Source of the DNA: a candidate division FCPU426 bacterium
GTDB lineage: Bacteria; Oederibacteriota; Muellerivitia; Muellerivitales; DAHXKG01
Reading direction: 5' to 3'
NCBI GenBank assembly: GCA_027366525.1
Contig: DAHXKG010000005.1
Coordinates: 2,575-66,574 of the forward strand
DNA: 64,000 bases
Below are positions 29,838 through 40,700 of the stretch, piece by piece. Positions within the stretch are counted from its first letter, which is position 1. Each line of letters opens with the position of its first letter. The position numbers and the translations under genes are program-made. The notes beneath the pieces were generated by a model that had not been told where the DNA came from, did not search any database, and saw only the letters and a program-made list of their open reading frames with translations.

Positions 29838-29909
29838 TCATTTATATATAGTATATAGTAATGTTGGTTGACTAATGGTAATGTTATTTGTACTATAAGC
29901 GTCTTAAAT

Positions 29910-29987
29910 GGGGTTGTAGCTCAGCTTGGTTAGAGCGCCTGCCTGTCACGCAGGAGGTCGCGGGTTCGAGCCCCGTCAACCCCGCCA
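29910..29987 (+). tRNA. tRNA-Asp (anticodon GTC), with encoded CCA
   Basis: GGGGTTG acceptor stem pairs with CAACCCC. D-loop AGCTCAGCTTGGTTAGAGC. Anticodon stem CCTGC/GCAGG with loop CTGTCAC. T-arm GGGTTCGAGCCCC. Discriminator G + CCA. Confidence 0.9.
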
Positions 29988-30286
29988 TTACAAATTTAAG
30001 CTGTCCCCAGCAGTCTCTAAAGGTCTTTGCCTGTAAGGGTTTCGCAGCCCGGAGCAGGTAAAGGCCTTTTTTTGTTCCGGTGGTCAGCGGGGATCAAAGG
30101 GGGGAAAAGGGGGTTGGGAATGACATCATAAGACTCCTATAAGACACCGGGCCGATACCCCTGCAATCTCCTGCCATTTAGAGGCGACCTCCTCCGGTTG
30201 GGCTACCCGGTTTTGACCCCCTCCCCGGCCTCCTCCGGAATATGACACAAGCGCCATAGGCTTTTGGGGTATAAAGGGCCAGTGGT

Positions 30287-30350
30287 TGACAAAAGGCTAT
30301 ATTTGGATAAATATGTATATAGAAATGAATAACTATAGGCATATTTATCC
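30287..30350 (+). promoter_or_regulatory. candidate abiE promoter/operator: TTGACA -35 box and 11-bp perfect inverted repeat GGATAAATATG..CATATTTATCC ending 1 nt before the abiEi ATG
   Basis: TTGACA at 30287-30292. IR arms at 30305-30315 and 30340-30350 separated by 24 nt. AbiEi antitoxins are known to autoregulate via inverted repeats in their promoter. Confidence 0.45.
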
Positions 30351-30971
30351 ATGAATACGGCGACCAAAGCAAAAACCTATGAAAGGGCCATCAAGGTCTT
30401 CAAGACCCATGGAGGGCTCCTGTCCTCGACAGAGGCCATTCAGGCGGGCATCCATCCAAGGGACCTTTACGCCATGAGGGATGCCAAACTGCTCGAACAG
30501 ATGAGCCGGGGGCTTTACCGCCTTTCGGATATGCCTTCCCTCGAAAACCCAGACCTTGTGACGGTAGCCAAGCGAGTGCCAAAGGGGGTCCTTTGCCTGA
30601 TCTCGGCTCTTGCCCTTCATGAGCTGACCACCCAAATACCCCATGAGGTTTATGTGGCGCTCAAGATGGGGGCGAGAATCCACCGGCTGGAAAACCTGCC
30701 TCTTCGGATTTTTCATTTTTCCGGTAAGGCTTTTACGGAAGGGATTGAGGAACGAAAGGTGGATGGGGTGGCCTTCCGGGTTTATTCCAAGGAAAAAACC
30801 CTAGCAGATTGTTTCAAATATCGGAATGTCGTTGGGATGGATACGGCGCTGGAGGCCCTCCGTAATTATTGGAAGAGCCGGGGGAAGAATATGGATAAGC
30901 TTACCCATTTTTCGAAAATCTGCCGTGTCGAAAACGTCATGCGGCCTTATTTGGAGACCATTCAAGAATGA
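30351..30971 (+). CDS. abiEi: AbiEi-family antitoxin (type IV TA / abortive infection)
   Basis: 206 aa. N-terminal winged-HTH pattern (YERAIKVFKTHGGLLSSTEAIQAGIHPRDLYAMRDAKLLEQMSRGLYRL) typical of AbiEi. ATGA-overlapped with downstream DUF1814 NTase gene. GC-rich relative to flanks. Confidence 0.75.
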   Translation: MNTATKAKTYERAIKVFKTHGGLLSSTEAIQAGIHPRDLYAMRDAKLLEQMSRGLYRLSDMPSLENPDLVTVAKRVPKGVLCLISALALHELTTQIPHEVYVALKMGARIHRLENLPLRIFHFSGKAFTEGIEERKVDGVAFRVYSKEKTLADCFKYRNVVGMDTALEALRNYWKSRGKNMDKLTHFSKICRVENVMRPYLETIQE

Positions 30972-31894
30972 AAAAACCCATCGTCAATATGGCGGCCTCG
31001 GTCCACCAGCGGCTCCTGAACATGGCCCAAAAGACAAAGCGGCCTTTCAATGAGCTACTTCAGTATTACGCCATGGAGAGATTTCTCTATCGCCTTTCCA
31101 AGTCCAAATATTCGAATAGCTTCATCCTGAAAGGGGCCCTTCTGTTCAAAGCCTGGGAAGTAGCCGATTCCAGGGCCACCATAGACATCGATCTTCTCGG
31201 AAGGTTGAAGAATGAAACGAAACATATTGCCCAAGTCGTAAAGGAGATTTGTTCCCGTGATGATGATCATGATGATGGTCTTCGTTTTGACCCTGCCACG
31301 GTAAAGGCTTCAAGAATCGTGGAGGGCGCGGATTATCATGGCGTCAGGGTGAAGTTTCGCGGCTACTTGGGCAATGCTCAAATACCCATGCAGATCGACA
31401 TAGGATTTGGGGACCTCATAATGGCTGGACCTATTCCGTTGGTATATCCCACACTCTTGGATCTTCCGGCGCCCCATCTCAAAGGCTACAGGCCGGAAAA
31501 CACGATTGCCGAAAAATTCGAGACCATGTGCAAGAGGGGAACGGCCAATAGCCGAATGAAGGACTTTTTCGATATTTGGCTTTTGGCTAGAAGGTTTAAC
31601 TTTGATGGGACCAAGCTGTCCAGGGCCATTAAGGAAACCTTTGAGAACCGCCACATGGAAATCCCAATGGAGCCCCTAGCTTTGAGCACAGATTTTTCGC
31701 GGGACAAGACTAAAGCAACACAATGGAAAGCTTTCGTGAAAAAGAGCCGGTTACCCCATGCGCCTTCCAGCTTTACCCTGATAGTAAAGGTGCTAAGAAG
31801 TTTTTTGGGACCGATTGCAAAGACCCTGAACGTGAAGAAGAACTTCACTGGAAGGTGGAAAGCATCAGGCCCCTGGAAGGGTTTAAAGAAATGA
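30968..31894 (+). CDS. abiEii: AbiEii/AbiGii-family nucleotidyltransferase toxin (DUF1814)
   Basis: 308 aa. N-terminus ASVHQRLLNMAQKTKRPFNELLQYYAMERFLYRLSKSKYSNSFILKGALLFKAWEVADSRATIDIDLLGR matches the DUF1814 NTase signature (GS...DxD). Confidence 0.8.
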   Translation: MKKPIVNMAASVHQRLLNMAQKTKRPFNELLQYYAMERFLYRLSKSKYSNSFILKGALLFKAWEVADSRATIDIDLLGRLKNETKHIAQVVKEICSRDDDHDDGLRFDPATVKASRIVEGADYHGVRVKFRGYLGNAQIPMQIDIGFGDLIMAGPIPLVYPTLLDLPAPHLKGYRPENTIAEKFETMCKRGTANSRMKDFFDIWLLARRFNFDGTKLSRAIKETFENRHMEIPMEPLALSTDFSRDKTKATQWKAFVKKSRLPHAPSSFTLIVKVLRSFLGPIAKTLNVKKNFTGRWKASGPWKGLKK

Positions 31895-32200
31895 GAAAAT
31901 CAAAAGAGTTCAGCCAAAGCCTTAAAGAAGGTCTTAAGTTTGCTCAAGGCAAGAAGGCGAAAGTTAAGGTTGAAAGACTTCTCGTAAAGCGCAAACCCTC
32001 CAAGCTGAAAAAGTAAATCTCTGATTTTGCGGGGAAAGCCTTCCCCCTGGCCTCGGCTACCTTCGGTGATCCTCGGCACACCCCCTTCTTCTGGGGCTTT
32101 GCCCCAAGCCCTTTAAATCATCTAAACCCAATGTAGAAATGACTTAAAGTTTGAATCTTTTTGTAATTAAAAAAGTCCTTGAATTTATAGGAAATTAGTA

Positions 32201-32218
32201 ATACGCTAATCAGCGGAT
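32201..32218 (+). promoter_or_regulatory. 18-nt motif ATACGCTAATCAGCGGAT upstream of the XRE gene (copy 1 of 2)
   Basis: Identical 18-mer recurs at 33329-33346 upstream of the DUF3892-like gene. Near-palindromic core CGCTAATCAGCG. Confidence 0.45.
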
Positions 32219-32238
32219 TTATAGAATCCTAGAAATAG

Positions 32239-32559
32239 GTGATAAAAATGACATTTGGAGAATTTGTAGCCACTAAGCGGAAGGAAAGGAAACTTACCCA
32301 GAAGGATTTGGCGGCGAAGATTTTGAAAGAAGACGGCAATGCCATAACGGCCCAATATCTCAATGATATTGAGCACGATAGGCGAAATCCCCCGGCTGGC
32401 CAGTTGCTTGAACAGTTTGCGAAAATGTTAGATATCCCGGTGGATGCTTTGTACGTCTTGGCTGGCAAAATGCCAGATAATCTTTTGAAAAGTAAAGATG
32501 TTGATGTTCAAAAACTTGAAGTCGCCTTTCAAGCGTTTAGAAAAAAACTTAAGGAATAA
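32239..32559 (+). CDS. XRE-family (HTH_3) transcriptional regulator
   Basis: 106 aa. FGEFVATKRKERKLTQKDLAAKI...AITAQYLNDIEHDRRNP helix-turn-helix pattern. Confidence 0.75.
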   Translation: MIKMTFGEFVATKRKERKLTQKDLAAKILKEDGNAITAQYLNDIEHDRRNPPAGQLLEQFAKMLDIPVDALYVLAGKMPDNLLKSKDVDVQKLEVAFQAFRKKLKE

Positions 32560-32561
32560 TT

Positions 32562-33281
32562 TTGAAATACGTTCGCGACATTTCGGGAATCCTAAGAACC
32601 AGACCTCACTTGCAACCTGTCGAAATCGACAGGAAGTGCGAGCAAATCATCCGCGAATTTATGGAGCTTGAATGCGGTGGGTTTGTTGTGCCAATTCCGA
32701 CCAGTGCTTTGACGCGGTTGATTGAACGTGATGCAGATGACCTGGATTTGTACGCTGATCTTTCAAAGGACGGCCAGGGCATTGATGGTGTAACCGATTT
32801 TGTGAAAGACAAGCGGCCACGGGTTAGGATTTCAAAGGAGCTTTCGGAGGCAAAAAACGAACATCGCTTACGTACGACCTTGACCCACGAATATGGGCAT
32901 GTGAAATTTCATGCTCCGTTGGTAGCCGCCGAGGCTCTCGATCAAGACCTATTTGGTCCTGGTGCCACGAAAACCCCGCATCACTGTAACAGGGAGCGTA
33001 TTTATTCAAAAAACACTTCAAATTGGATGGAATGGCAAGCTGGTTATGTTTGCGGGTCACTATTGATGCCGTTGACGATTTTCAAGGAGTTCGTTTTGGA
33101 ATTTTTTAAACGTGAAAATACCCACGCCCCTCTGAAAATTTGTACCCCGCTGGCAGAAAAACTTTTGGCAGAAATCTCTCAAAAGTTTCATGTTTCCAGG
33201 GACGCTGCCAAAGTGCGGCTTTTCTATGTTGGAAATGGGTCTTATCTGACGGATGGGGATCCCCACCCAACCATGCTTTAA
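32562..33281 (+). CDS. ImmA/IrrE-family metallopeptidase
   Basis: 239 aa. HEYGHVKFH HExxH zinc motif in the ImmA/IrrE position immediately downstream of an XRE regulator (3-nt gap). Confidence 0.7.
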   Translation: MKYVRDISGILRTRPHLQPVEIDRKCEQIIREFMELECGGFVVPIPTSALTRLIERDADDLDLYADLSKDGQGIDGVTDFVKDKRPRVRISKELSEAKNEHRLRTTLTHEYGHVKFHAPLVAAEALDQDLFGPGATKTPHHCNRERIYSKNTSNWMEWQAGYVCGSLLMPLTIFKEFVLEFFKRENTHAPLKICTPLAEKLLAEISQKFHVSRDAAKVRLFYVGNGSYLTDGDPHPTML

Positions 33282-33328
33282 TCTCCAAAATAATCGGTTC
33301 AAAACATTGACAAGAACAACCTTTCGTG

Positions 33329-33346
33329 ATACGCTAATCAGCGGAT
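33329..33346 (+). promoter_or_regulatory. 18-nt motif ATACGCTAATCAGCGGAT (copy 2 of 2), upstream of DUF3892-like gene
   Basis: Exact repeat of 32201-32218. Preceded by TTGACA at 33306-33311. Confidence 0.45.
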
Positions 33347-33399
33347 ACTCAAATAAGCTTATTTTTGTATAAAAAAATCAGCAGTGAAAGGAAAAGACG

Positions 33400-33687
33400 A
33401 TGGCAGAGCGAGTGGAAGTAAGTTGTATCGACAAGCGGGACCGTCAGAATCCGCATGAACGGATTCAGGCCATTGGCGGTGTGCATGGTGGCCAGCGATG
33501 GAAGATGTCGGAAGAGAATGCAATCCAGAGCATTAAGGCTGGAAAATACGATTTTTACGTTACTCGAGGCGGTCGGACCGTGGACGTGATTATCGACACC
33601 CACAGCGGGCGTGAATATCTGAAAACGGAAAATGACGGGTATAGCCCGGACAACCTTCTCAGTTTAGACGCATGCAGGGTAAATTAA
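33400..33687 (+). CDS. DUF3892-like small protein
   Basis: 95 aa. C-terminal pattern FYVTRGGRTVDVIIDTHSGREYLKTENDGYSPDNLLSLDAC resembles the DUF3892 signature (fyv..gG..v.V....g.kYLrT.aDg...dNLlsLp.C) recalled from memory. Needs HMM confirmation. Confidence 0.5.
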   Translation: MAERVEVSCIDKRDRQNPHERIQAIGGVHGGQRWKMSEENAIQSIKAGKYDFYVTRGGRTVDVIIDTHSGREYLKTENDGYSPDNLLSLDACRVN

Positions 33688-33735
33688 TGGGGACGGCCTG
33701 TCGGTGACGGCGGGTCGTTTTTTCAAAAAGACATA

Positions 33736-33984
33736 ATGAGGTGCACAATGCTCGTTTACTGTACTAATTGCAAAAAAGAACATGCTGACCCAGGTATGAA
33801 CCTCCCGTGGTCATCCTGTCGGTTCTGCGGCGGAAACCTGGTTCGATCTGCAGGAGTTGGTCGTCTTGCCGGTGCTGGTGCAGGGGCGGCGCTTGGATCC
33901 CTTGGGGGACCTTTCGGCGCCGTTGTTGGTGGCGTCCTGGGATTTTTCCTTGGAAATACTGCAGAAAAAAACATCAAGAGGTGA
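33736..33984 (+). CDS. zinc-ribbon + glycine-zipper small membrane protein
   Basis: 82 aa. CTNC...CRFCGG zinc ribbon, then GAGAGAALGSLGGPFGAVVGGVLGFFLGN glycine-zipper TM helix. AGGAG-like RBS. Stop 4 nt before the next start. Confidence 0.6.
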   Translation: MRCTMLVYCTNCKKEHADPGMNLPWSSCRFCGGNLVRSAGVGRLAGAGAGAALGSLGGPFGAVVGGVLGFFLGNTAEKNIKR

Positions 33985-33988
33985 TGTA

Positions 33989-34579
33989 ATGGTACATAAG
34001 GTATTTTTTAGTTTTCATTATGAGCGGGATAACTGGCGTGCCGGACAGGTGCGTAATAGTGGAATCACCAAGTCCGACGTCGAATCCGCCGGGTTCATCG
34101 ATGCAGTTGAGTGGGAGTCCATTCAACGCGAAGGTGACAAAGCTATCGAATCGTGGATCGAGAAGCAGATGGAAGGGACGGCGGTTACGGTAGTCCTGAT
34201 TGGGGCTCAAACGGCCAATCGGCGCTGGGTCTTGCACGAGATTAAGCGGAGTGCAGAAAAAGGCAATGGATTGCTTGGCATCTATATCCACAACGTCAAG
34301 GACATGGAGGGTAAAAAGGACTCCCAAGGGAAAAACCCATTTACAGAATGCGGTATCGAGGATGTTCCCATCTATGACTGGGCTGAAGACAACGGATACG
34401 AAAATTTCGGGAAATGGGTTGAAGCGGCATATCAGAAAGCTCTTCCGAAGGCAGGAAAAGCCGTTGGTGCTGGTGCAGGTGCCGCTATCGGTGCACCCTT
34501 TGGGCTCCTCGGAGTCGTTATAGGGGCGGCGGTTGGGTACCTTTTTGGAAATGAAGTCGATAAAGAAAGTAAGGGATAA
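33989..34579 (+). CDS. ThsB-like TIR-like domain protein (DUF1863/MTH538 type) with C-terminal glycine-zipper TM helix
   Basis: 196 aa from ATG 33989 (AAGAGGTGA RBS). The ORF-track upstream extension to 33857 is frame read-through of the previous gene. KVFFSFHYERD...VRN...TAVTVVLIGAQTANRRWVLHEIKRSAEKGNGLLGIYIHNVKD...GKNPF...YDWAEDNGYENFGKWV parallels Bacillus cereus Thoeris ThsB (RVFFSFHY...TSVTCVLIGSQTFNRRWVRYEI...GIHIN..KD...GPNPFD...YDWVADDGYNKF) as recalled from memory. Tail GAGAGAAIGAPFGLLGVVIGAAVGYLFGN. Confidence 0.7.
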   Translation: MVHKVFFSFHYERDNWRAGQVRNSGITKSDVESAGFIDAVEWESIQREGDKAIESWIEKQMEGTAVTVVLIGAQTANRRWVLHEIKRSAEKGNGLLGIYIHNVKDMEGKKDSQGKNPFTECGIEDVPIYDWAEDNGYENFGKWVEAAYQKALPKAGKAVGAGAGAAIGAPFGLLGVVIGAAVGYLFGNEVDKESKG

Positions 34580-34583
34580 TTAA

Positions 34584-35009
34584 ATGGGAAAAAAATTTAA
34601 ACACCTAGAGTTTATCCAGGCAATTATCAACCGAATGGCCGGCAACTCTTTCTTAATCAAAGGTTGGTCGGTAACGGTTCTTTCCCTTGTTACTGCATTC
34701 GTGCTAAATGATGGCGACCCTCGGTTGGTTCCTGTGGCTTACTTTCTTGTTCTGATGTTCTGGTTCCTTGATGCCTACTACCTAAAAATCGAAAAGAACT
34801 ATCGGGAACTATACAAGGCTGTCTGCAAAACCGAGGAGAAGGCTATCGATTTCAACCTCGCTTCCAATGGCTACTCCAAAAAAGCGGGTAGCTATGGAGC
34901 CGTTCTATTCTCCACCACCCTGCTTTTGTTCTACGGGGCGTTGATTGTTTTTGTCGTCGTTGTTCATCTTATGACGGGAGTGTGTCATGGCACGTCGTGT
35001 ATTTTTTAG
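34584..35009 (+). CDS. small 3-TM membrane protein (candidate effector; possibly SLATT-like)
   Basis: 141 aa. TM segments [56 protein letters not shown]. 4-nt gap from upstream gene and 23-nt overlap with downstream gene. Confidence 0.55.
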   Translation: MGKKFKHLEFIQAIINRMAGNSFLIKGWSVTVLSLVTAFVLNDGDPRLVPVAYFLVLMFWFLDAYYLKIEKNYRELYKAVCKTEEKAIDFNLASNGYSKKAGSYGAVLFSTTLLLFYGALIVFVVVVHLMTGVCHGTSCIF

Positions 35010-35442
35010 TTTTGATTATGATCGGGACATTTGGCGGATTGGACAAATTCGAAATAGTGGTTTGACTAAACCGGACATTGAAACTGCTGGATTTGTTGAT
35101 TCTGCATCCTGGGAATCCGTCAAACGTCAGACCGATGAAGCAATCGCACGATGGATAAATAATCAGCTTAATGGAACTTCAGTTACTGTAATTCTTATTG
35201 AGGTGGAAACGGTTCAAAACAGGTGGGTAAAGTATGAAATAGACCAAAGTATTTTGAGGGGGAACGGATTGCTTGGAATTTATATCCACAATGTTAAGAG
35301 CGCTTTAACTGGGCAAACCGATTATCAAGGTAAAAATCCTTTCGATGCTTTTGTGCTCACTTCAACCAATTTACCCCTCTCTCGCTATTACTACACGTAT
35401 GACTGGGTTATGAATGACGGATACAACAATTTTCCTGCTTGA
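34987..35442 (+). CDS. second ThsB-like TIR-like domain protein (DUF1863/MTH538 type), soluble
   Basis: 151 aa. RVFFSFDYDRDIWRIGQIRNSGLTK...TSVTVILIEVETVQNRWVKYEIDQSILRGNGLLGIYIHNVK...GKNPFD...YDWVMNDGYNNF. Paralogous to 33989-34579 but lacks the TM tail. Confidence 0.7.
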   Translation: MARRVFFSFDYDRDIWRIGQIRNSGLTKPDIETAGFVDSASWESVKRQTDEAIARWINNQLNGTSVTVILIEVETVQNRWVKYEIDQSILRGNGLLGIYIHNVKSALTGQTDYQGKNPFDAFVLTSTNLPLSRYYYTYDWVMNDGYNNFPA

Positions 35443-35786
35443 GGGGAACTTGCGGCTCAACGAGCAGGTAAATAATAAATCGTCCCTTTAATAATTCCCC
35501 TAAGAAACATCCTGAAACTCATTTAGATGGTTTTCTTCATTTCCGAGCGGCCTTAGCCACCAGTGGATCATTGAAATCTTTCAAATTTCACAACGCCGGG
35601 TCTGTCAAGTGATGGGTTTATCGAGAAATATATATCGGTATGCGCCTCCGGGTCGCTCGGAGGAACCGTCTTTGATAGCTCGAATGATCGAACCGGCATG
35701 TCTGTATGGACGCTATGCCCCATATGTCAGGATAGATGTCGCTTTTAGAGATATACTTCTCACGGGGTCAAAAAGGAAAAGGACCG

Positions 35787-36242
35787 ATGGAACAGTTCAA
35801 ATATTCAGAAGAATTCAAAAAGACAGCCGTTCAAAAGTTGTTGAATCGAGGTTCTCGTTTAGCGGAAGAAATCAGCAAGGAGCCAGGGGTTGCTTTGAGT
35901 ACCTTGCACCGGTGGAAGACGGAGCTAGGCTACAAGGGAGAAATTAAAAGTACGAGTCCAAGGCCACAAGATAGAAATCCTGAAGAAATGCTGAGATTAT
36001 TGATTGAATTTGAAAAAACACCTGAAGAAAAGAGGGGTTAGTTTTTGCGCATGAAAGGTTTACACACGCAAGAGATCGAGAACTGGCGAAACCAAATCAA
36101 AATGGCTTTAGGTCCAGGTGGTAAGAGGGTCGTGGATCGCAATGAACAAGTTAAAAATCGACTCCGGATTAAGGAACTGGAGAGGGATTTCGTGCGCAAG
36201 GACAAAGCTTTGGCCGAGGCCACCGCGCTTTTGATTCTTTAA
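35787..36242 (+). pseudogene. IS3-family transposase OrfA, interrupted by in-frame stop at 36039-36041
   Basis: HTH N-terminus and leucine-zipper-like C-terminus (KELERDFVRKDKALAEATALL) lie in the same frame separated by TAG. Confidence 0.6.
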
Positions 36243-36370
36243 AAAAAGCCGAATTGATTTGGGGAATCGAGGAGAACGAGTGAGCGCTGCCGATAGGACT
36301 CAGACCCAAGAGTTGATCGACGAAGCGGTTCGGGGGGGCCCATCAAGACAAAGCGGCTCACTAACTGGGC

Positions 36371-37189
36371 GTGTCGGTGAGAACTTTACAACGTTGGAAA
36401 TTTCAACTGGAAAATGGGCGAAAAGGCCCCCAAACACCACCCTCCAATGCGCTGAGCTTACAAGAGCGCGCTCATGTGTTGTCAGTGGCCAATAGCGCGG
36501 AATTTGCGGATCTGTCGCCGTGGCAAATCGTGCCGCGTCTTGCCGATCGTGGAGAATATCTGGCAAGTGAATCAAGCTTTTATCGGATTCTGAAAGCTGC
36601 CAATTGTTTGGCTCCTAGGTCAAGATCCAAGCCCAAGCAGCGTCAAAAACCAGAGGCGCTGATAGCTGTCAGACCCAATCAGGTTTGGAGCTGGGATATT
36701 ACCTATTTGAAGACTCGAATCCAGGGAATGTTCTTTTATCTTTACTTGCCCATGGATATTTTTTCTCGAAAGATTGTTTATTGGGAAGTGCATGAAAGTG
36801 AAAGCGCTGAACTGGCCAGTGGAATGATGGCCAAGGCCTGTGAAGTGCAGACGATCGAACCTGGTCAAATCAAACTCCATTCGGATAATGGAGGCCCGAT
36901 GAAGGGGGCGACAATGCTGGCAACGCTTCAGCGTTTAGGGGTTGCACCGTCCTTTAGCCGCCCGAGTGTGTCAAACGACAATCCTTATTTAGAGTCGTTT
37001 TTCAAAACACTGAAGTATTGCCCGAGTTATCCGACAAATGGTTGTTTTGATAGTATCGAAGTGACACGGGAGTGGGTTGAAAAATTCGTTTATTGGTATA
37101 ACCACGTACATTTACACAGTGGCATTAACTGGGTGACACCCGATTCCCGTCACGAGAACCGTGATCAAGCCATCTTAAAAAAACCGTGA
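36371..37189 (+). pseudogene. IS3-family transposase OrfB (DDE integrase core), frameshifted at both ends
   Basis: rve core motifs present. N-terminal part lies in a different frame (36259-36495). C-terminal tail shifts frame after 37189. Confidence 0.6.
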
Positions 37190-37545
37190 AAAGGTTTACA
37201 AGACGGCCCAGAGCCAAAAGCCCAACCGATGGTCTCGATCAACGCGCGATTGGTCACGTCTAGGTGCCGTGGAATTAAATCCGGGTGGGAGTTCACAAAA
37301 AATTCAAAAAGAAGTTACTGAAGCTGCTTGAAAATTTAGGCGACATCTTTCTTGAAATTTTCGGGTAGCGTCCTATATGAACAAAGAAGATGTTGACAGA
37401 GCAATCAAGAACAGTAAAATTTTATATGGATATCTCTTCATTACTACGAAGCTGTGGGTTTAGAGTTTCGGTTACAAAAAACCAAAGTCACCCTGGAACG
37501 ATCTCTTAAGAGTTTATACTTGGAATACCTAGATCTTTATCGGAT

Positions 37546-37588
37546 TGCATGCAGGAGGTTATGGGTTCAAGCCTCGTCAATCCCGCCA
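37546..37588 (+). repeat. degenerate direct repeat of the 3' half of tRNA-Asp (candidate attR of integrated island)
   Basis: GCATGCAGGAGGTTATGGGTTCAAGCCTCGTCAATCCCGCCA vs tRNA 3' half CACGCAGGAGGTCGCGGGTTCGAGCCCCGTCAACCCCGCCA. No matching 5' half upstream. GC content drops back to ~38% beyond this point. Confidence 0.6.
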
Positions 37589-37776
37589 TTTTTTAGCATT
37601 TTTGGGTGTTACAGCTAGATTAGTTGACCCAATTTTATGATTACGACAATCAAGGAACTTTAAACAATTCTTCAGAAAATGACTTTAGAATAACAGAATA
37701 ATACCTATTTCCAGAAAGCATTTGTAAAACTTGACTATGAATTTAAAACCACTTGCAAAAAACAACAATACTTGAA

Positions 37777-40700
37777 TTATTGAAGAATAATAAGTTTAGT
37801 GATGAACCGACCGGATGAAGTATTCACGACTAAATAATAGAGTCCATTGGCTAAAGGTACATGACTTATATCCAAAGGCGTAATCCGAATGATCGACGCG
37901 CCACTTGGGAAAGAACCAAAATCTTGACTGAATATCTTTCGGAATGCGGTTGTGAATATCTGTATCGTTAAGGAATTAACAGACTGGGGTAAAGAAATTT
38001 GTACTTGAAGTGGACCATCACCAAGATATGGATTTGGAAATGGAAGTGCAGACAAATGCTGGATCACAGGTGTGGGGCTTAAGGCATTTTGGAGGATGGG
38101 AGTTGGACTTAAAATGGGTGTCGGTGTGCTGGTTGATGTAAATATGGGAGTCATTGTTTGCGTGGGTGATGTTGTTAAGGTGGGTGTGAAGGTATTTATT
38201 TTAGTAAATGTTGGAGTTGGAGTCAAAGTATAGGTTGGTGTGGAAGTAGTAGTCAAGGTTGGGCTCCATGTAGGAGTGGGTGATAAGGTCAAGGTTACAG
38301 TTGGTGTGGGGGTTGTTGTATCGGTGAATGTGGGCGTAAAGGTAGTCGTATCTGTGGGGGTTAAAGTCAAAGTGTCAGTAGGAAACGGAGTTGATGTTAA
38401 GGTAGGTGAAAATGTCGAGGTTAGGGTAGGGGTGGTTGTCCAAGTCGGTGTTGACGTTTGAGTTGGAGATGAAGTGATGGTTGGAGTTAACGTTGAAGTT
38501 ATTGTCCAAGTCGAGGTTGGGGTAGCTGTAAAAGTATTTGTGGGTGAAGAAGTCGGGGTTGAAGTAGGCGTGGAAGTGAGCGTGGGAGTATAGGTTAAGG
38601 TGGGGGTTGGAGTCTGAGTGGGAGACGGAGTGGATGTTTCGGTTGAAGTAAAAGTGGCCGTTGAAGTCGGCGTCATGGTAGAAGAAGGCGTAGTGGTAGG
38701 CGTGCACTGAATATTATCGTTGACAATTTCAATTCCAGTCACTTCCGCATTATCCTTGGTAGGAACTTCTAAGATATCAATGAGTTGATTGGTTACGGGA
38801 ACGACAAAACTTCGATTATAGGCGGCATATTGTCCAACTTCGGCATAAATATCTAAATTGGTAATGACAGTAACGCCGTTGATCATGACGCTAAAAATCC
38901 GATCATTGGAAGCCGTCCAATATTGCTCCACGAATCGAAGATTAACGGTATAGGTCCCATTGGTGGGAACGGTAAATTTATATTCAACTGGATTGCCGTA
39001 TCGTTCTGTTTGATAAATCGTTGGATTTTTGGTTCCGGAGATTGCATTGGTGATAGTGGCAGCTTGAGTATTGGTTCCTACATAGCCAAACCCACCCGTA
39101 GTATAAGCCTGATCGGGAGACCACGTTCGTCCGAGATTGTCGATATAACCAGTTGTTCCACCTAAACCACAATCAATTCGGATCATGGATTGAGCACAAG
39201 GATTTTCAGTGGGTGTAGGAGTGGGTGGAGGGGTTGGGGTGTTGGTGGGTGTAGGGGTGCACGTGTAGGGAGCACAAGGATTAGGAGCAGTATCATAAGC
39301 TTCTTTTACGGCCCATACGGTATTGGCACGCATATAATAATGTGCACGAACATTTTGAACACCTGAAGTCCAAGCTTCGGGTGTTCGAAACCAAAGTTGG
39401 GCGGTATTCCAAATGGTGTTATAAAGGCTATAGCCAATTTGAGTCGCTTGCGTATTCATGCCAAGTTGGATCATGCCAGCTACAACGCCCCAGGCGGTTC
39501 CCACCCAAGCTTCTTGTGTTTGTGAGGACGAGGTATCAATCGCACCTGCGGCGGTCATGACATTAACCACGCCGTCAGCTCCATTATCAAAAAGTTTATA
39601 GTTATTGTTATAAATCGTTTGAAAAGCACTGATGGCATCGGCGGTAGGAACAATGCTAGGGAGTCCGCAGGCTTCCGCATACCATTCGCCGCATAATTGA
39701 TCATCCATAATACGGGTATCGGCTGGTGGCGTATTCGTTGTACTGTAGTCAATATCATAATAGGTGTTGTTCCACAAGAGCGACTGATAACTGGCTTGTC
39801 CGGTATTAAACCAGCTGGTATAGGATGTGGCAGTGGTTGTATTCCCTTCGGCCGTTGCAATTTGTTCTGCCGCTTCACAGGCGGCGAGAAAGAGTCCACC
39901 ACAGTAAGCGGTATCGCCGGTGAGCGACATGTTGTCGTAGGTTTGATCAACTCCCGAGCTAATTGGAAGTCCGGTGGCATCACATTGACTATGGACTTTA
40001 TTCATAGCGACTTGAACAGCCGGCCAGCAATAATTAAGAAAAGCCGTGTCGGTTTTTCCTGTAATTTCCCAATCCCGGTAAACCATGAGGACAAATTTGG
40101 AATTCAAATCTTTCCAAGTTGTGGTATCGCGATAGGTATAAGCATTCCATTGAGTAAAGCAAGTATTGAGGTCACCCAAATCATGAGCGCAGGTTCCAAT
40201 AGCAGCCGGATAGAAACTTTGAGAGTTAATTAAGCTATTGCTAAATTCTTTTACACATTGTTTATCCAAATTAGGCCAAAGCATAATTAAGGGCCAAGAA
40301 CTATAAAATCGTACATCCGAGGTTTCATAGTAGGGATAAATATAACTTTCCAAATGAGCAAACATATCATCACTGGGATTGGTGTTGGTGGGTTGACCTG
40401 AAGCACCACCGGCTTCCCACATGGTTCCGCTGGTAAAAAGTTCATAGAGTTCATTGAATAAATCGGTTTTTAACCAATCCGGATAAAGTCCATTATTTAG
40501 AATTTGATTCTGCCAGGTTGTGATGGAGGTGTCCCAAGTGGGGTAGTTATTAAGCGCATCATTGGCAATGGCCCACGAATTGCGTCCAGTTTGTCCATAA
40601 TACCGAGTATATTCTCGGTACCATAAATCCCCGGTCCCGCCATCAGCGGCAGCAGGTTCCGCTAACGGAATATCCCAAGACAAAACGATGGGCACCACAA

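Follow-up and report, generated by a model that had tools for sequence, protein, structure and literature searches.

A 64,000-nucleotide (nt) stretch of contig DAHXKG010000005.1 from a candidate division FCPU426 bacterium (the window) contains, between positions 32239 and 35442, a series of genes that all lie on the + strand and very probably form a Thoeris-like TIR defence operon. Two adjacent genes of this operon encode a small Zn-ribbon protein and a ThsB-type TIR protein (ThsB1), both of which end in a glycine-zipper module; a protein with three transmembrane (TM) helices, belonging to the PDC-M50A (M50A) family of the PADLOC database, is encoded directly downstream. We propose, with a probability of roughly 55%, that the zippers act as a membrane tether and hetero-oligomerization module for the TIR signal generator. 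The proposal is built on the homology of the two modules, the adjacency of their genes, a natural fusion of the two proteins, alternative tethers in related operons, the TIR fold of ThsB1 with its conserved Glu, and the membership of the operon core in the PADLOC candidate system PDC-M50. The two zipper genes are located as follows.

33748-33984, + strand: Zn-ribbon and glycine-zipper small protein, 78 amino acids (aa), counted from M5 of an 82-aa open reading frame.
33989-34579, + strand: ThsB-type TIR protein 1 (ThsB1), 196 aa; Pfam ThsB_TIR E 2.7e-26, PADLOC ThsB E 7e-62.

The open reading frame of the small protein extends from 33736 to 33984, with the start placed at 33748 by gene callers. 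Its product comprises a CxxC...CxxC ribbon (residues 5-27) and the glycine-zipper module (residues 36-78, nt 33853-33981), while ThsB1 comprises a TIR core (residues 1-152) and the C-terminal glycine-zipper module (residues 154-196, nt 34448-34576). Pairwise alignment of the last 43 residues of both proteins is free of gaps and runs up to both stop codons; within the 38-residue core, 17 positions are identical, and all 10 glycines are in register. When the two ortholog sets of zipper modules were compared by hhalign, a probability of 97.5% and an E value of 6e-12 were obtained over 43 ungapped columns, and the hidden Markov model (HMM) of the Zn-ribbon family detected the ThsB tails at E values of 1e-8 to 4e-12. 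None of 20,000 full shuffles of the module matched the observed alignment score, and none of 20,000 shuffles in which the glycines were held fixed reached it, so that the similarity exceeds a mere common GxxxG register. The shuffle test was weaker for the hydrophobic core of the zipper alone (477 of 20,000 reached the observed score), and BLASTP with composition correction gave a weak match (E 0.009). As far as can be judged from sequence, the two tails are homologous modules and more than two glycine-rich stretches; the similarity is in fact larger than was stated in the earlier note on this DNA, in which the two segments had been described as homologous.

Both peptides exist as described in that note, as does the DNA-level 14-mer shared by the two genes. 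The latter (GGTGCTGGTGCAGG) occurs in exactly two copies in the 64-kb window, at 33871 and 34466, where 0 are expected, and corresponds to four identical Gly/Ala codons (GAGAG). It provides no evidence of a recent duplication: the modules share 55% nucleotide identity, and the same base occupies the third position in 11 of 38 codons, which is about random. The zipper copies are therefore old, and recent duplication or gene conversion was ruled out as the source of the 14-mer.

Close homologs of the Zn-ribbon and glycine-zipper protein are rare, with four clusters found among 5.8 billion proteins. At all six loci recovered (the window, L003, L007, L008, L009, and L010), its gene lies right after a DUF3892 gene and precedes a ThsB gene by 4 to 12 nt; this ThsB bears a zipper tail at every locus with complete sequence. 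A genome scan yielded a single true extra locus, L017, identical with L007; a further hit, L018, was rejected as an irrelevant Zn-ribbon within a DUF1080-like protein. A sensitive search of 1.84 billion representatives retrieved about 50 further small proteins combining a Zn-ribbon with a zipper. In the alignment of 25 family members, the four Cys residues are invariant, and the GGP turn at the center, eight Gly residues, and the central Pro of the zipper are invariant or nearly so. This newly defined, previously unnamed family consists of proteins of approximately 80 residues and comprises about 50 clusters at 50% identity. At L003 (3216-3782), L009 (763-1236), and L010 (1434-1721), an extra canonical TIR gene is inserted between the zipper-tailed ThsB gene and the M50A gene; it encodes a 188-aa protein with the signature DIFLSH...WMPWELGYFDG, is recognized by the PADLOC ThsB model PDLC00422, and has no counterpart in the window.

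The connection between the two zipper proteins is reinforced by a natural fusion. The 248-aa protein P0252 combines in a single chain a Zn-ribbon, followed by the zipper and then by ThsB, and its gene is located directly upstream of an M50A gene, with which it overlaps. Fusions of this type (P0252/P0355) are present in six contigs, each time beside M50A. Since a fusion of this kind is a classic genomic signature, it argues for physical cooperation of the two separate proteins. The suggestion of the earlier note that the free-standing and the TIR-fused zipper copies belong together is thus borne out by their adjacency at six of six loci and by P0252, and the module clearly does co-occur with TIR-like genes elsewhere. 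The P0252 locus has an extra small ThsB gene upstream and a Gabija/OLD-like gene next door; the fusion-type locus L103 (818-2593) is followed by an OLD/Gabija-like AAA_15-TOPRIM gene.

The assignment of ThsB1 to the ThsB-type TIR proteins is supported by both sequence and predicted structure. ThsB1 and the second ThsB-type protein of the operon (ThsB2) score 92.3 and 78.3 bits, respectively, against ThsB_TIR (PF08937; cutoff 21.2). The TIR core of the AlphaFold2 model of ThsB1 has a predicted local distance difference test (pLDDT) of 86-95 (about 90), and Foldseek matched the model to 8wcf (EcThsB; E 1.2e-12, TM score 0.81) as well as to 6lhy and 9b7d; overall, E. coli and Bacillus ThsB structures were matched at E values of 1e-12 to 3e-10 with 30-33% identity. 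E84 of ThsB1 is invariant among 32 homologs, and we take the catalytic Glu of the W..E helix to be E85 in B. cereus ThsB. The ThsB1 segment RRWVLHEI, which contains the invariant Glu, corresponds to RRWVRYEI of ThsB from B. cereus MSX-D12 (Table S1 of bioRxiv 10.64898/2025.12.03.692087). By its sequence, ThsB1 is thus a Thoeris ThsB-type TIR protein and a predicted signal generator in which the catalytic Glu is present. It shares with the ThsB proteins of type I Thoeris (B. cereus MSX-D12; E. coli ThsB, 8wcf, 6lhy) the TIR-like fold and the RRWV.YEI motif with the catalytic Glu, but differs from them in its C-terminal zipper; moreover, the SIR2-SLOG protein ThsA of type I systems is absent here, and the candidate effector is a membrane protein.

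Most of the 3,589 ThsB1 homologs found have a length of 150-165 aa and no tail. Among those that are tethered, three types can be distinguished, i.e., the C-terminal zipper with its partner protein, a plain TM helix, and the N-terminal Zn-ribbon-zipper fusion. The plain TM helix is found in a lineage represented by P0013, P0014, and P0085, in which a ThsB directly upstream of M50A carries a hydrophobic C-terminal helix with an insertion energy (Hessa scale) of -2.9 kcal/mol. Compared across the three lineages with tethers, the TIR cores share 42-58% identity with one another, against 56-61% with untethered ThsB2 genes. As the tethered cores are no closer to one another than to the untethered ones, the tethers must have arisen independently, and three different tethers at one operon position point to membrane localization as a selected property. 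At one locus of the TM-tethered lineage (L004, 494-5491), the ThsB/M50A pair directly follows a Multi_ubiq / Prok-E2_E / ThiF(E1) / BubE cassette that has a fused HTH-M78 regulator.

According to the models and alignments, the zipper module can be described as a 43-residue C-terminal hairpin of two short Gly/Ala-rich helices, which are connected by the conserved GGP turn and flanked by Lys/Arg-rich segments. It resembles the Pfam glycine-zipper clan (PF13488, PF13441, and the "Glycine zipper 2TM" family PF05433), which provides the best Pfam matches for both tails and has the same GxxxG-periodic helix-turn-helix of about 40 residues; weak matches to glycine-zipper families are precomputed for orthologs, too. 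Unlike in this clan, the module studied here forms the C-terminus of cytoplasmic proteins without signal peptides or is enclosed by two cytoplasmic domains. The Pfam glycine-zipper families are mostly envelope lipoproteins. The closest sequence matches of the zipper among solved structures (E 0.03-0.2) are chain M of PDB entry 7qog, the cargo protein gp45 of a crAss-like phage, and chain g of 9ki1, a phage tape measure protein; similar GGP-centered zippers therefore exist in phage proteins that pass into or through the host envelope.

We consider it likely that the zipper inserts into the membrane, probably in an oligomerization-dependent or re-entrant manner, yet a number of observations weigh against a tethering function. 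The earlier note had named prediction of the segments as disordered or soluble rather than TM as an outcome that would speak against its membrane module, and this is in part what was found: AlphaFold2 models the ThsB1 tail at pLDDT 32-39 with no secondary structure, and for the Zn-ribbon protein it predicts a helix-turn-helix (helix 41-51, break, helix 54-75) at a pLDDT of only 44-54. The zipper is marginally hydrophobic (Kyte-Doolittle hydropathy 1.5-2.0), and its summed Hessa insertion energy is unfavorable at +2.8 to +4.8 kcal/mol per 19 residues, while genuine TM helices of the same operon have values of -2 to -3 kcal/mol. With approximately 13-15 residues, each zipper helix is too short to cross the bilayer alone. 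The Pfam glycine-zipper scores narrowly miss the curated cutoffs, specifically 24.1 bits (E 3.5e-5) versus 25 for the Zn-ribbon protein against Gly-zipper_Omp (PF13488), 21.2 versus 28.9 against YMGG (PF13441), and 18.1 versus 24.2 for the ThsB1 tail against Rick_17kDa. Finally, distant members of the Zn-ribbon and zipper family adjoin another membrane protein rather than a TIR protein, and the family is hence not TIR specific. The genes of two such members, P0245 and P0249, are followed at L021 (346-929) and L022 (66-562) by that of a conserved multi-TM protein (…FFWRCYWVKKWPD…), which gives the family of small proteins at least one membrane partner of another kind.

If the zippers do tether the TIR protein, the operon may be envisaged to function as follows. 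The pair of an HTH regulator and an M78 peptidase encoded upstream would control two promoters that share a palindrome, and the operon would yield the DUF3892 protein, the Zn-ribbon and zipper protein, the tethered ThsB, and M50A. The hairpin would keep the TIR domain, which is cytoplasmic, close to the inner membrane surface, presumably with both of its ends on the cytoplasmic side; such a topology fits the fusion protein, in which Zn-ribbon and TIR domain flank the zipper in the absence of an export signal, and it agrees with the Lys/Arg residues on both zipper flanks. The hairpin of the Zn-ribbon protein would pack onto that of ThsB via the GxxxG faces, and the resulting hetero-oligomer would concentrate TIR domains beside a ring of M50A. 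TIR enzymes are activated by self-association. Sensing or control would be supplied by the cytoplasmic Zn-ribbon and perhaps by DUF3892; the Zn-ribbon protein could act either as an activator or as a brake. An infection cue would then start synthesis of an ADP-ribose-derived signal of the cyclic ADP-ribose (cADPR) type next to M50A, which in turn would disrupt the membrane. In a more specific and decidedly tentative version, the zipper pair itself could be a membrane-resident phage sensor, i.e., a metastable hetero-oligomer which is rearranged by phage membrane events (for instance injection of the genome, the action of holins or pinholins, or depolarization), and which thereby switches on the TIR protein for the 3-TM effector. 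If this were true, membrane-localized TIR sensing would represent a recurrent, so far undescribed branch of Thoeris.

The earlier note had itself favored another function, in which a VacA-like zipper channel couples the TIR domain directly to membrane permeabilization. The zippers would then be the killing device, with the Zn-ribbon protein and the ThsB tail co-assembling into a channel comparable to VacA or bacteriocins, and the TIR protein would be sensor and effector in one. The GxxxG repeats and the likeness to the Pfam glycine-zipper families are in line with such a channel, as are the marginal hydrophobicity, a usual trait of segments whose insertion requires prior oligomerization, the similar segments in the crAss-like phage cargo protein and the tape measure protein, and the pairing of the small protein with only another membrane protein at L021 and L022. 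However, every TIR-linked locus of sufficient length (the window, L003, L019/L020, and L103-L105) also encodes the 3-TM protein M50A, so that the operon has a membrane protein of its own, and elsewhere M50A pairs with ThsB proteins that are not tethered. Furthermore, the zipper is replaced by a plain TM helix in another lineage, which favors a role as an anchor over one as a specific pore, and the AlphaFold2 models offer no structural support for a channel. On balance, we regard this direct coupling as unlikely.

The strict pairing of the genes and the spacing of 4 nt, which suggest co-translation and a defined stoichiometry, would also suit a Zn-ribbon protein that is a negative regulator or decoy, whose zipper keeps the TIR protein monomeric and inactive until the latter is set free by a phage cue that has the Zn-ribbon or DUF3892 as its target. 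This would be a variant of the tethering model in which the partner protein has the opposite effect. The activation of TIR enzymes by self-association agrees with such a role, as does the stronger conservation of the zipper of the small protein relative to that of ThsB; a single-chain Zn-ribbon-zipper-ThsB fusion fits less easily with an inhibitor that has to be released, and a decoy function appears rather improbable to us. Alternatively, the zipper might be a soluble self-association or prion-like templating motif, handed on from one gene product to its neighbor as in bacterial amyloid signaling pairs, that triggers TIR clustering. The fact that the products of two neighboring genes end in the same short motif, the disorder assigned to the ThsB tail by AlphaFold2, and the unfavorable translocon-scale insertion energy are consistent with this explanation. 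On the other hand, a genuine hydrophobic TM helix takes the place of the motif in a parallel lineage, the best family matches are membrane glycine zippers, the motif is internal rather than terminal in the fusion protein, and no NLR- or Bell-type partner is present, which makes templating very unlikely. Least credible is a convergent low-complexity resemblance devoid of any functional connection between the two genes: the composition-corrected BLASTP result and the randomized third codon positions speak in its favor, but the gap-free alignment up to both stop codons, the shuffle test with fixed glycines, the invariable adjacency of the two genes, and the natural fusion leave hardly any room for it.

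The zipper pair belongs to a larger operon, whose remaining features are listed below.

32201-32218, + strand: copy 1 of an 18-nt imperfect palindrome, upstream of the HTH gene; overlaps a -10-like hexamer; putative operator.
32239-32559, + strand: HTH_3 regulator, CapH-like; Pfam HTH_3 E 8e-8, PADLOC HTH_VI E 1e-10, capH E 2e-3.
32562-33281, + strand: M78/IrrE-type metallopeptidase, CapP-like; Pfam Peptidase_M78 E 2e-6 (above threshold), PADLOC capP E 3e-8.
33329-33346, + strand: copy 2 of the 18-nt palindrome, upstream of the DUF3892 gene; TTGACA + 17 nt + TACGCT.
33400-33687, + strand: DUF3892 protein, 95 aa; Pfam PF13031 E 1.5e-16.
34584-35009, + strand: 3-TM membrane protein of the PDC-M50A family, 141 aa; PADLOC PDLC04686 E 1.2e-44; candidate signal-activated effector, ThsF-like.
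34987-35442, + strand: ThsB-type TIR protein 2 (ThsB2, PDC-M50B); Pfam ThsB_TIR E 6.5e-22, PADLOC PDLC04688 E 3e-56.

We read this region as a multi-gene TIR-signaling anti-phage operon that corresponds to the PADLOC candidate PDC-M50 and resembles type V Thoeris. Regarding PDC-M50, which consists of the 3-TM protein M50A and the TIR protein M50B, the window genes match both HMMs (1.2e-44 and 3e-56) in the canonical order M50A then ThsB and overlap by 23 nt. They differ from it by the upstream trio of DUF3892, the Zn-ribbon and zipper protein, and the zipper-tailed ThsB, and by a premature stop in the canonical ThsB. Among 80 metagenomic M50A loci sampled for gene layout, the usual arrangement is M50A followed by one soluble ThsB. 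A same-strand downstream ThsB of this family was called at 51 of the 80 loci and had a hydrophobic extension at none of them, and the trio was seen at 0 of the 80; it is an addition of the present lineage to the canonical core of M50A and a soluble ThsB.

The 141-aa M50A protein of the window features three hydrophobic helices with insertion energies of -2 to -3 kcal/mol, and no Pfam family was assigned to it. In the family alignment, K6, H7, R17, N21, S22, K26, W28, D63, and E70 are conserved, and the family is characterized by a conserved basic/polar N-terminal helix and an LD.YYL..ER..R motif. Type V Thoeris has been described as a system of ThsB and a 3-TM effector, ThsF, which is annotated as DUF2270, activated by 3'cADPR, and modeled as a ring (Yirmiya et al., bioRxiv 10.64898/2025.12.03.692087). 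The two-component logic of a TIR signal generator and a small 3-TM effector adjoining ThsB is the same here, and in Table S1 of that preprint, TIR proteins very similar to the window ThsB are labeled "DUF2270 - Type V." Homologs of the validated B. thuringiensis type V ThsB that are encoded on plasmids and share 39-49% identity with it adjoin M50A-family genes; in Klebsiella, Priestia, Terribacillus, and Clostridium, plasmids encode a 135-aa M50A-family protein beside other TIR types. The TIR/M50A core is known as a candidate system and probably also as type V Thoeris. To be set against this, the window M50A gave no match to PF10028 (DUF2270) at E values up to 10, and only 4 of 34 M50A members matched it, weakly, with a best E value of 1e-3; for one member that was inspected, the match amounted to 12.6 bits (cutoff 25) and covered TM1-TM2 only. 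Unlike ThsF, M50A thus falls under the Pfam DUF2270 threshold, and its equivalence to ThsF is proposed as a candidate relationship only. The main text of Yirmiya et al. (bioRxiv 10.64898/2025.12.03.692087) mentions neither zinc nor DUF3892, refers to glycine only for a Cap2-conjugation tail, and never makes statements on transmembrane segments about the TIR protein.

In the literature searched, we did not find a zipper-tethered ThsB, a matched Zn-ribbon partner, a Rosetta-stone fusion of the two, or convergent tethers. No literature on PDC-M50 was found; with respect to glycine zippers and anti-phage defense, PMC11090510 contains nothing on a TIR fusion, and judging from titles and abstracts, no paper on a membrane-anchored ThsB was found. 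In the literature covered, the TIR proteins of Thoeris are described as soluble cytoplasmic sensors. Here, ThsB is tethered in three independent ways next to members of one 3-TM effector family, and one of these ways involves a separate Zn-ribbon protein with a matched zipper, a link that the natural fusion confirms. This pattern points to a membrane-localized sensing or signaling step. If the tail proved dispensable, it would merely be a further accessory added to a known system.

Expression of the TIR operon appears, from gene content, to be regulated by the CapH/CapP-like pair of HTH regulator and M78 peptidase, which is also present at L003 and is fused at L004 and L007. The 18-nt imperfect palindrome ATACGCTAATCAGCGGAT occurs in exactly two copies in the 64-kb window (32201-32218 and 33329-33346), each of which overlaps a TACGCT -10-like hexamer; the promoter at copy 1, upstream of the HTH gene, reads TTGAAT + 17 nt + TACGCT. 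It is likely that the palindrome serves as the operator of the CapH-like repressor at two coregulated promoters. An association of DUF3892 with HTH/metallopeptidase operons has been noted before (Lau et al., bioRxiv 10.1101/2022.04.27.489752, citing Burroughs & Aravind 2020). As in those CapH/CapP and DUF3892 operons, the HTH and M78 genes precede an operon that starts with DUF3892, but the regulators are codirectional with the operon here and divergent there, and a cargo of Zn-ribbon and zipper protein plus tethered ThsB is not described there (bioRxiv 10.1101/2022.04.27.489752). DUF3892 was also proposed earlier as a sensor domain with a fold similar to double-stranded RNA-binding domains (bioRxiv 10.1101/2025.01.14.632903).

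The canonical PDC-M50 TIR protein of this genome, ThsB2, is, by its sequence, truncated by a nonsense mutation. Its gene ends at an in-frame TGA (35440-35442) at a position that is occupied by an invariant Trp in all homologs (L006 ortholog: ...GYNNFGSWVELAAQAAGRY), and beyond this codon the ancestral frame is intact, encoding GELAAQRAGK up to a TAA at 35473-35475. Insertion of the neighboring IS3-family element as the cause of the short ThsB2 was ruled out by these two features. The surroundings consist of a tRNA-Asp gene (29910-29987), an AbiEi/AbiEii pair, the HTH/M78 pair, the TIR operon, and the IS3-family element (35736-37189), in that order, and the region from 29910 to 37189 looks like a small defense island at a tRNA gene; an att-type direct repeat was not found in 29880-37800.

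Two further observations concern the ThsB proteins. Conserved C-terminal tails of two other kinds, RP(E/K)LEPPxxRSxxxSxCIR and SGSLLKSAxxxSASFPNRPIxPNKPSGFA, are carried by further close homologs of ThsB (P0062, P0072, P0076, P0078, and P0084; P0006, P0009, P0010, and P0019); both may be conjugation or docking tails. Finally, the two ThsB genes of the window share a 39-nt direct repeat of 85% identity (34262-34300 and 35260-35298), located at the conserved GNGLLGIYIHNVK motif; this repeat could allow the ThsB paralogs to recombine with each other.

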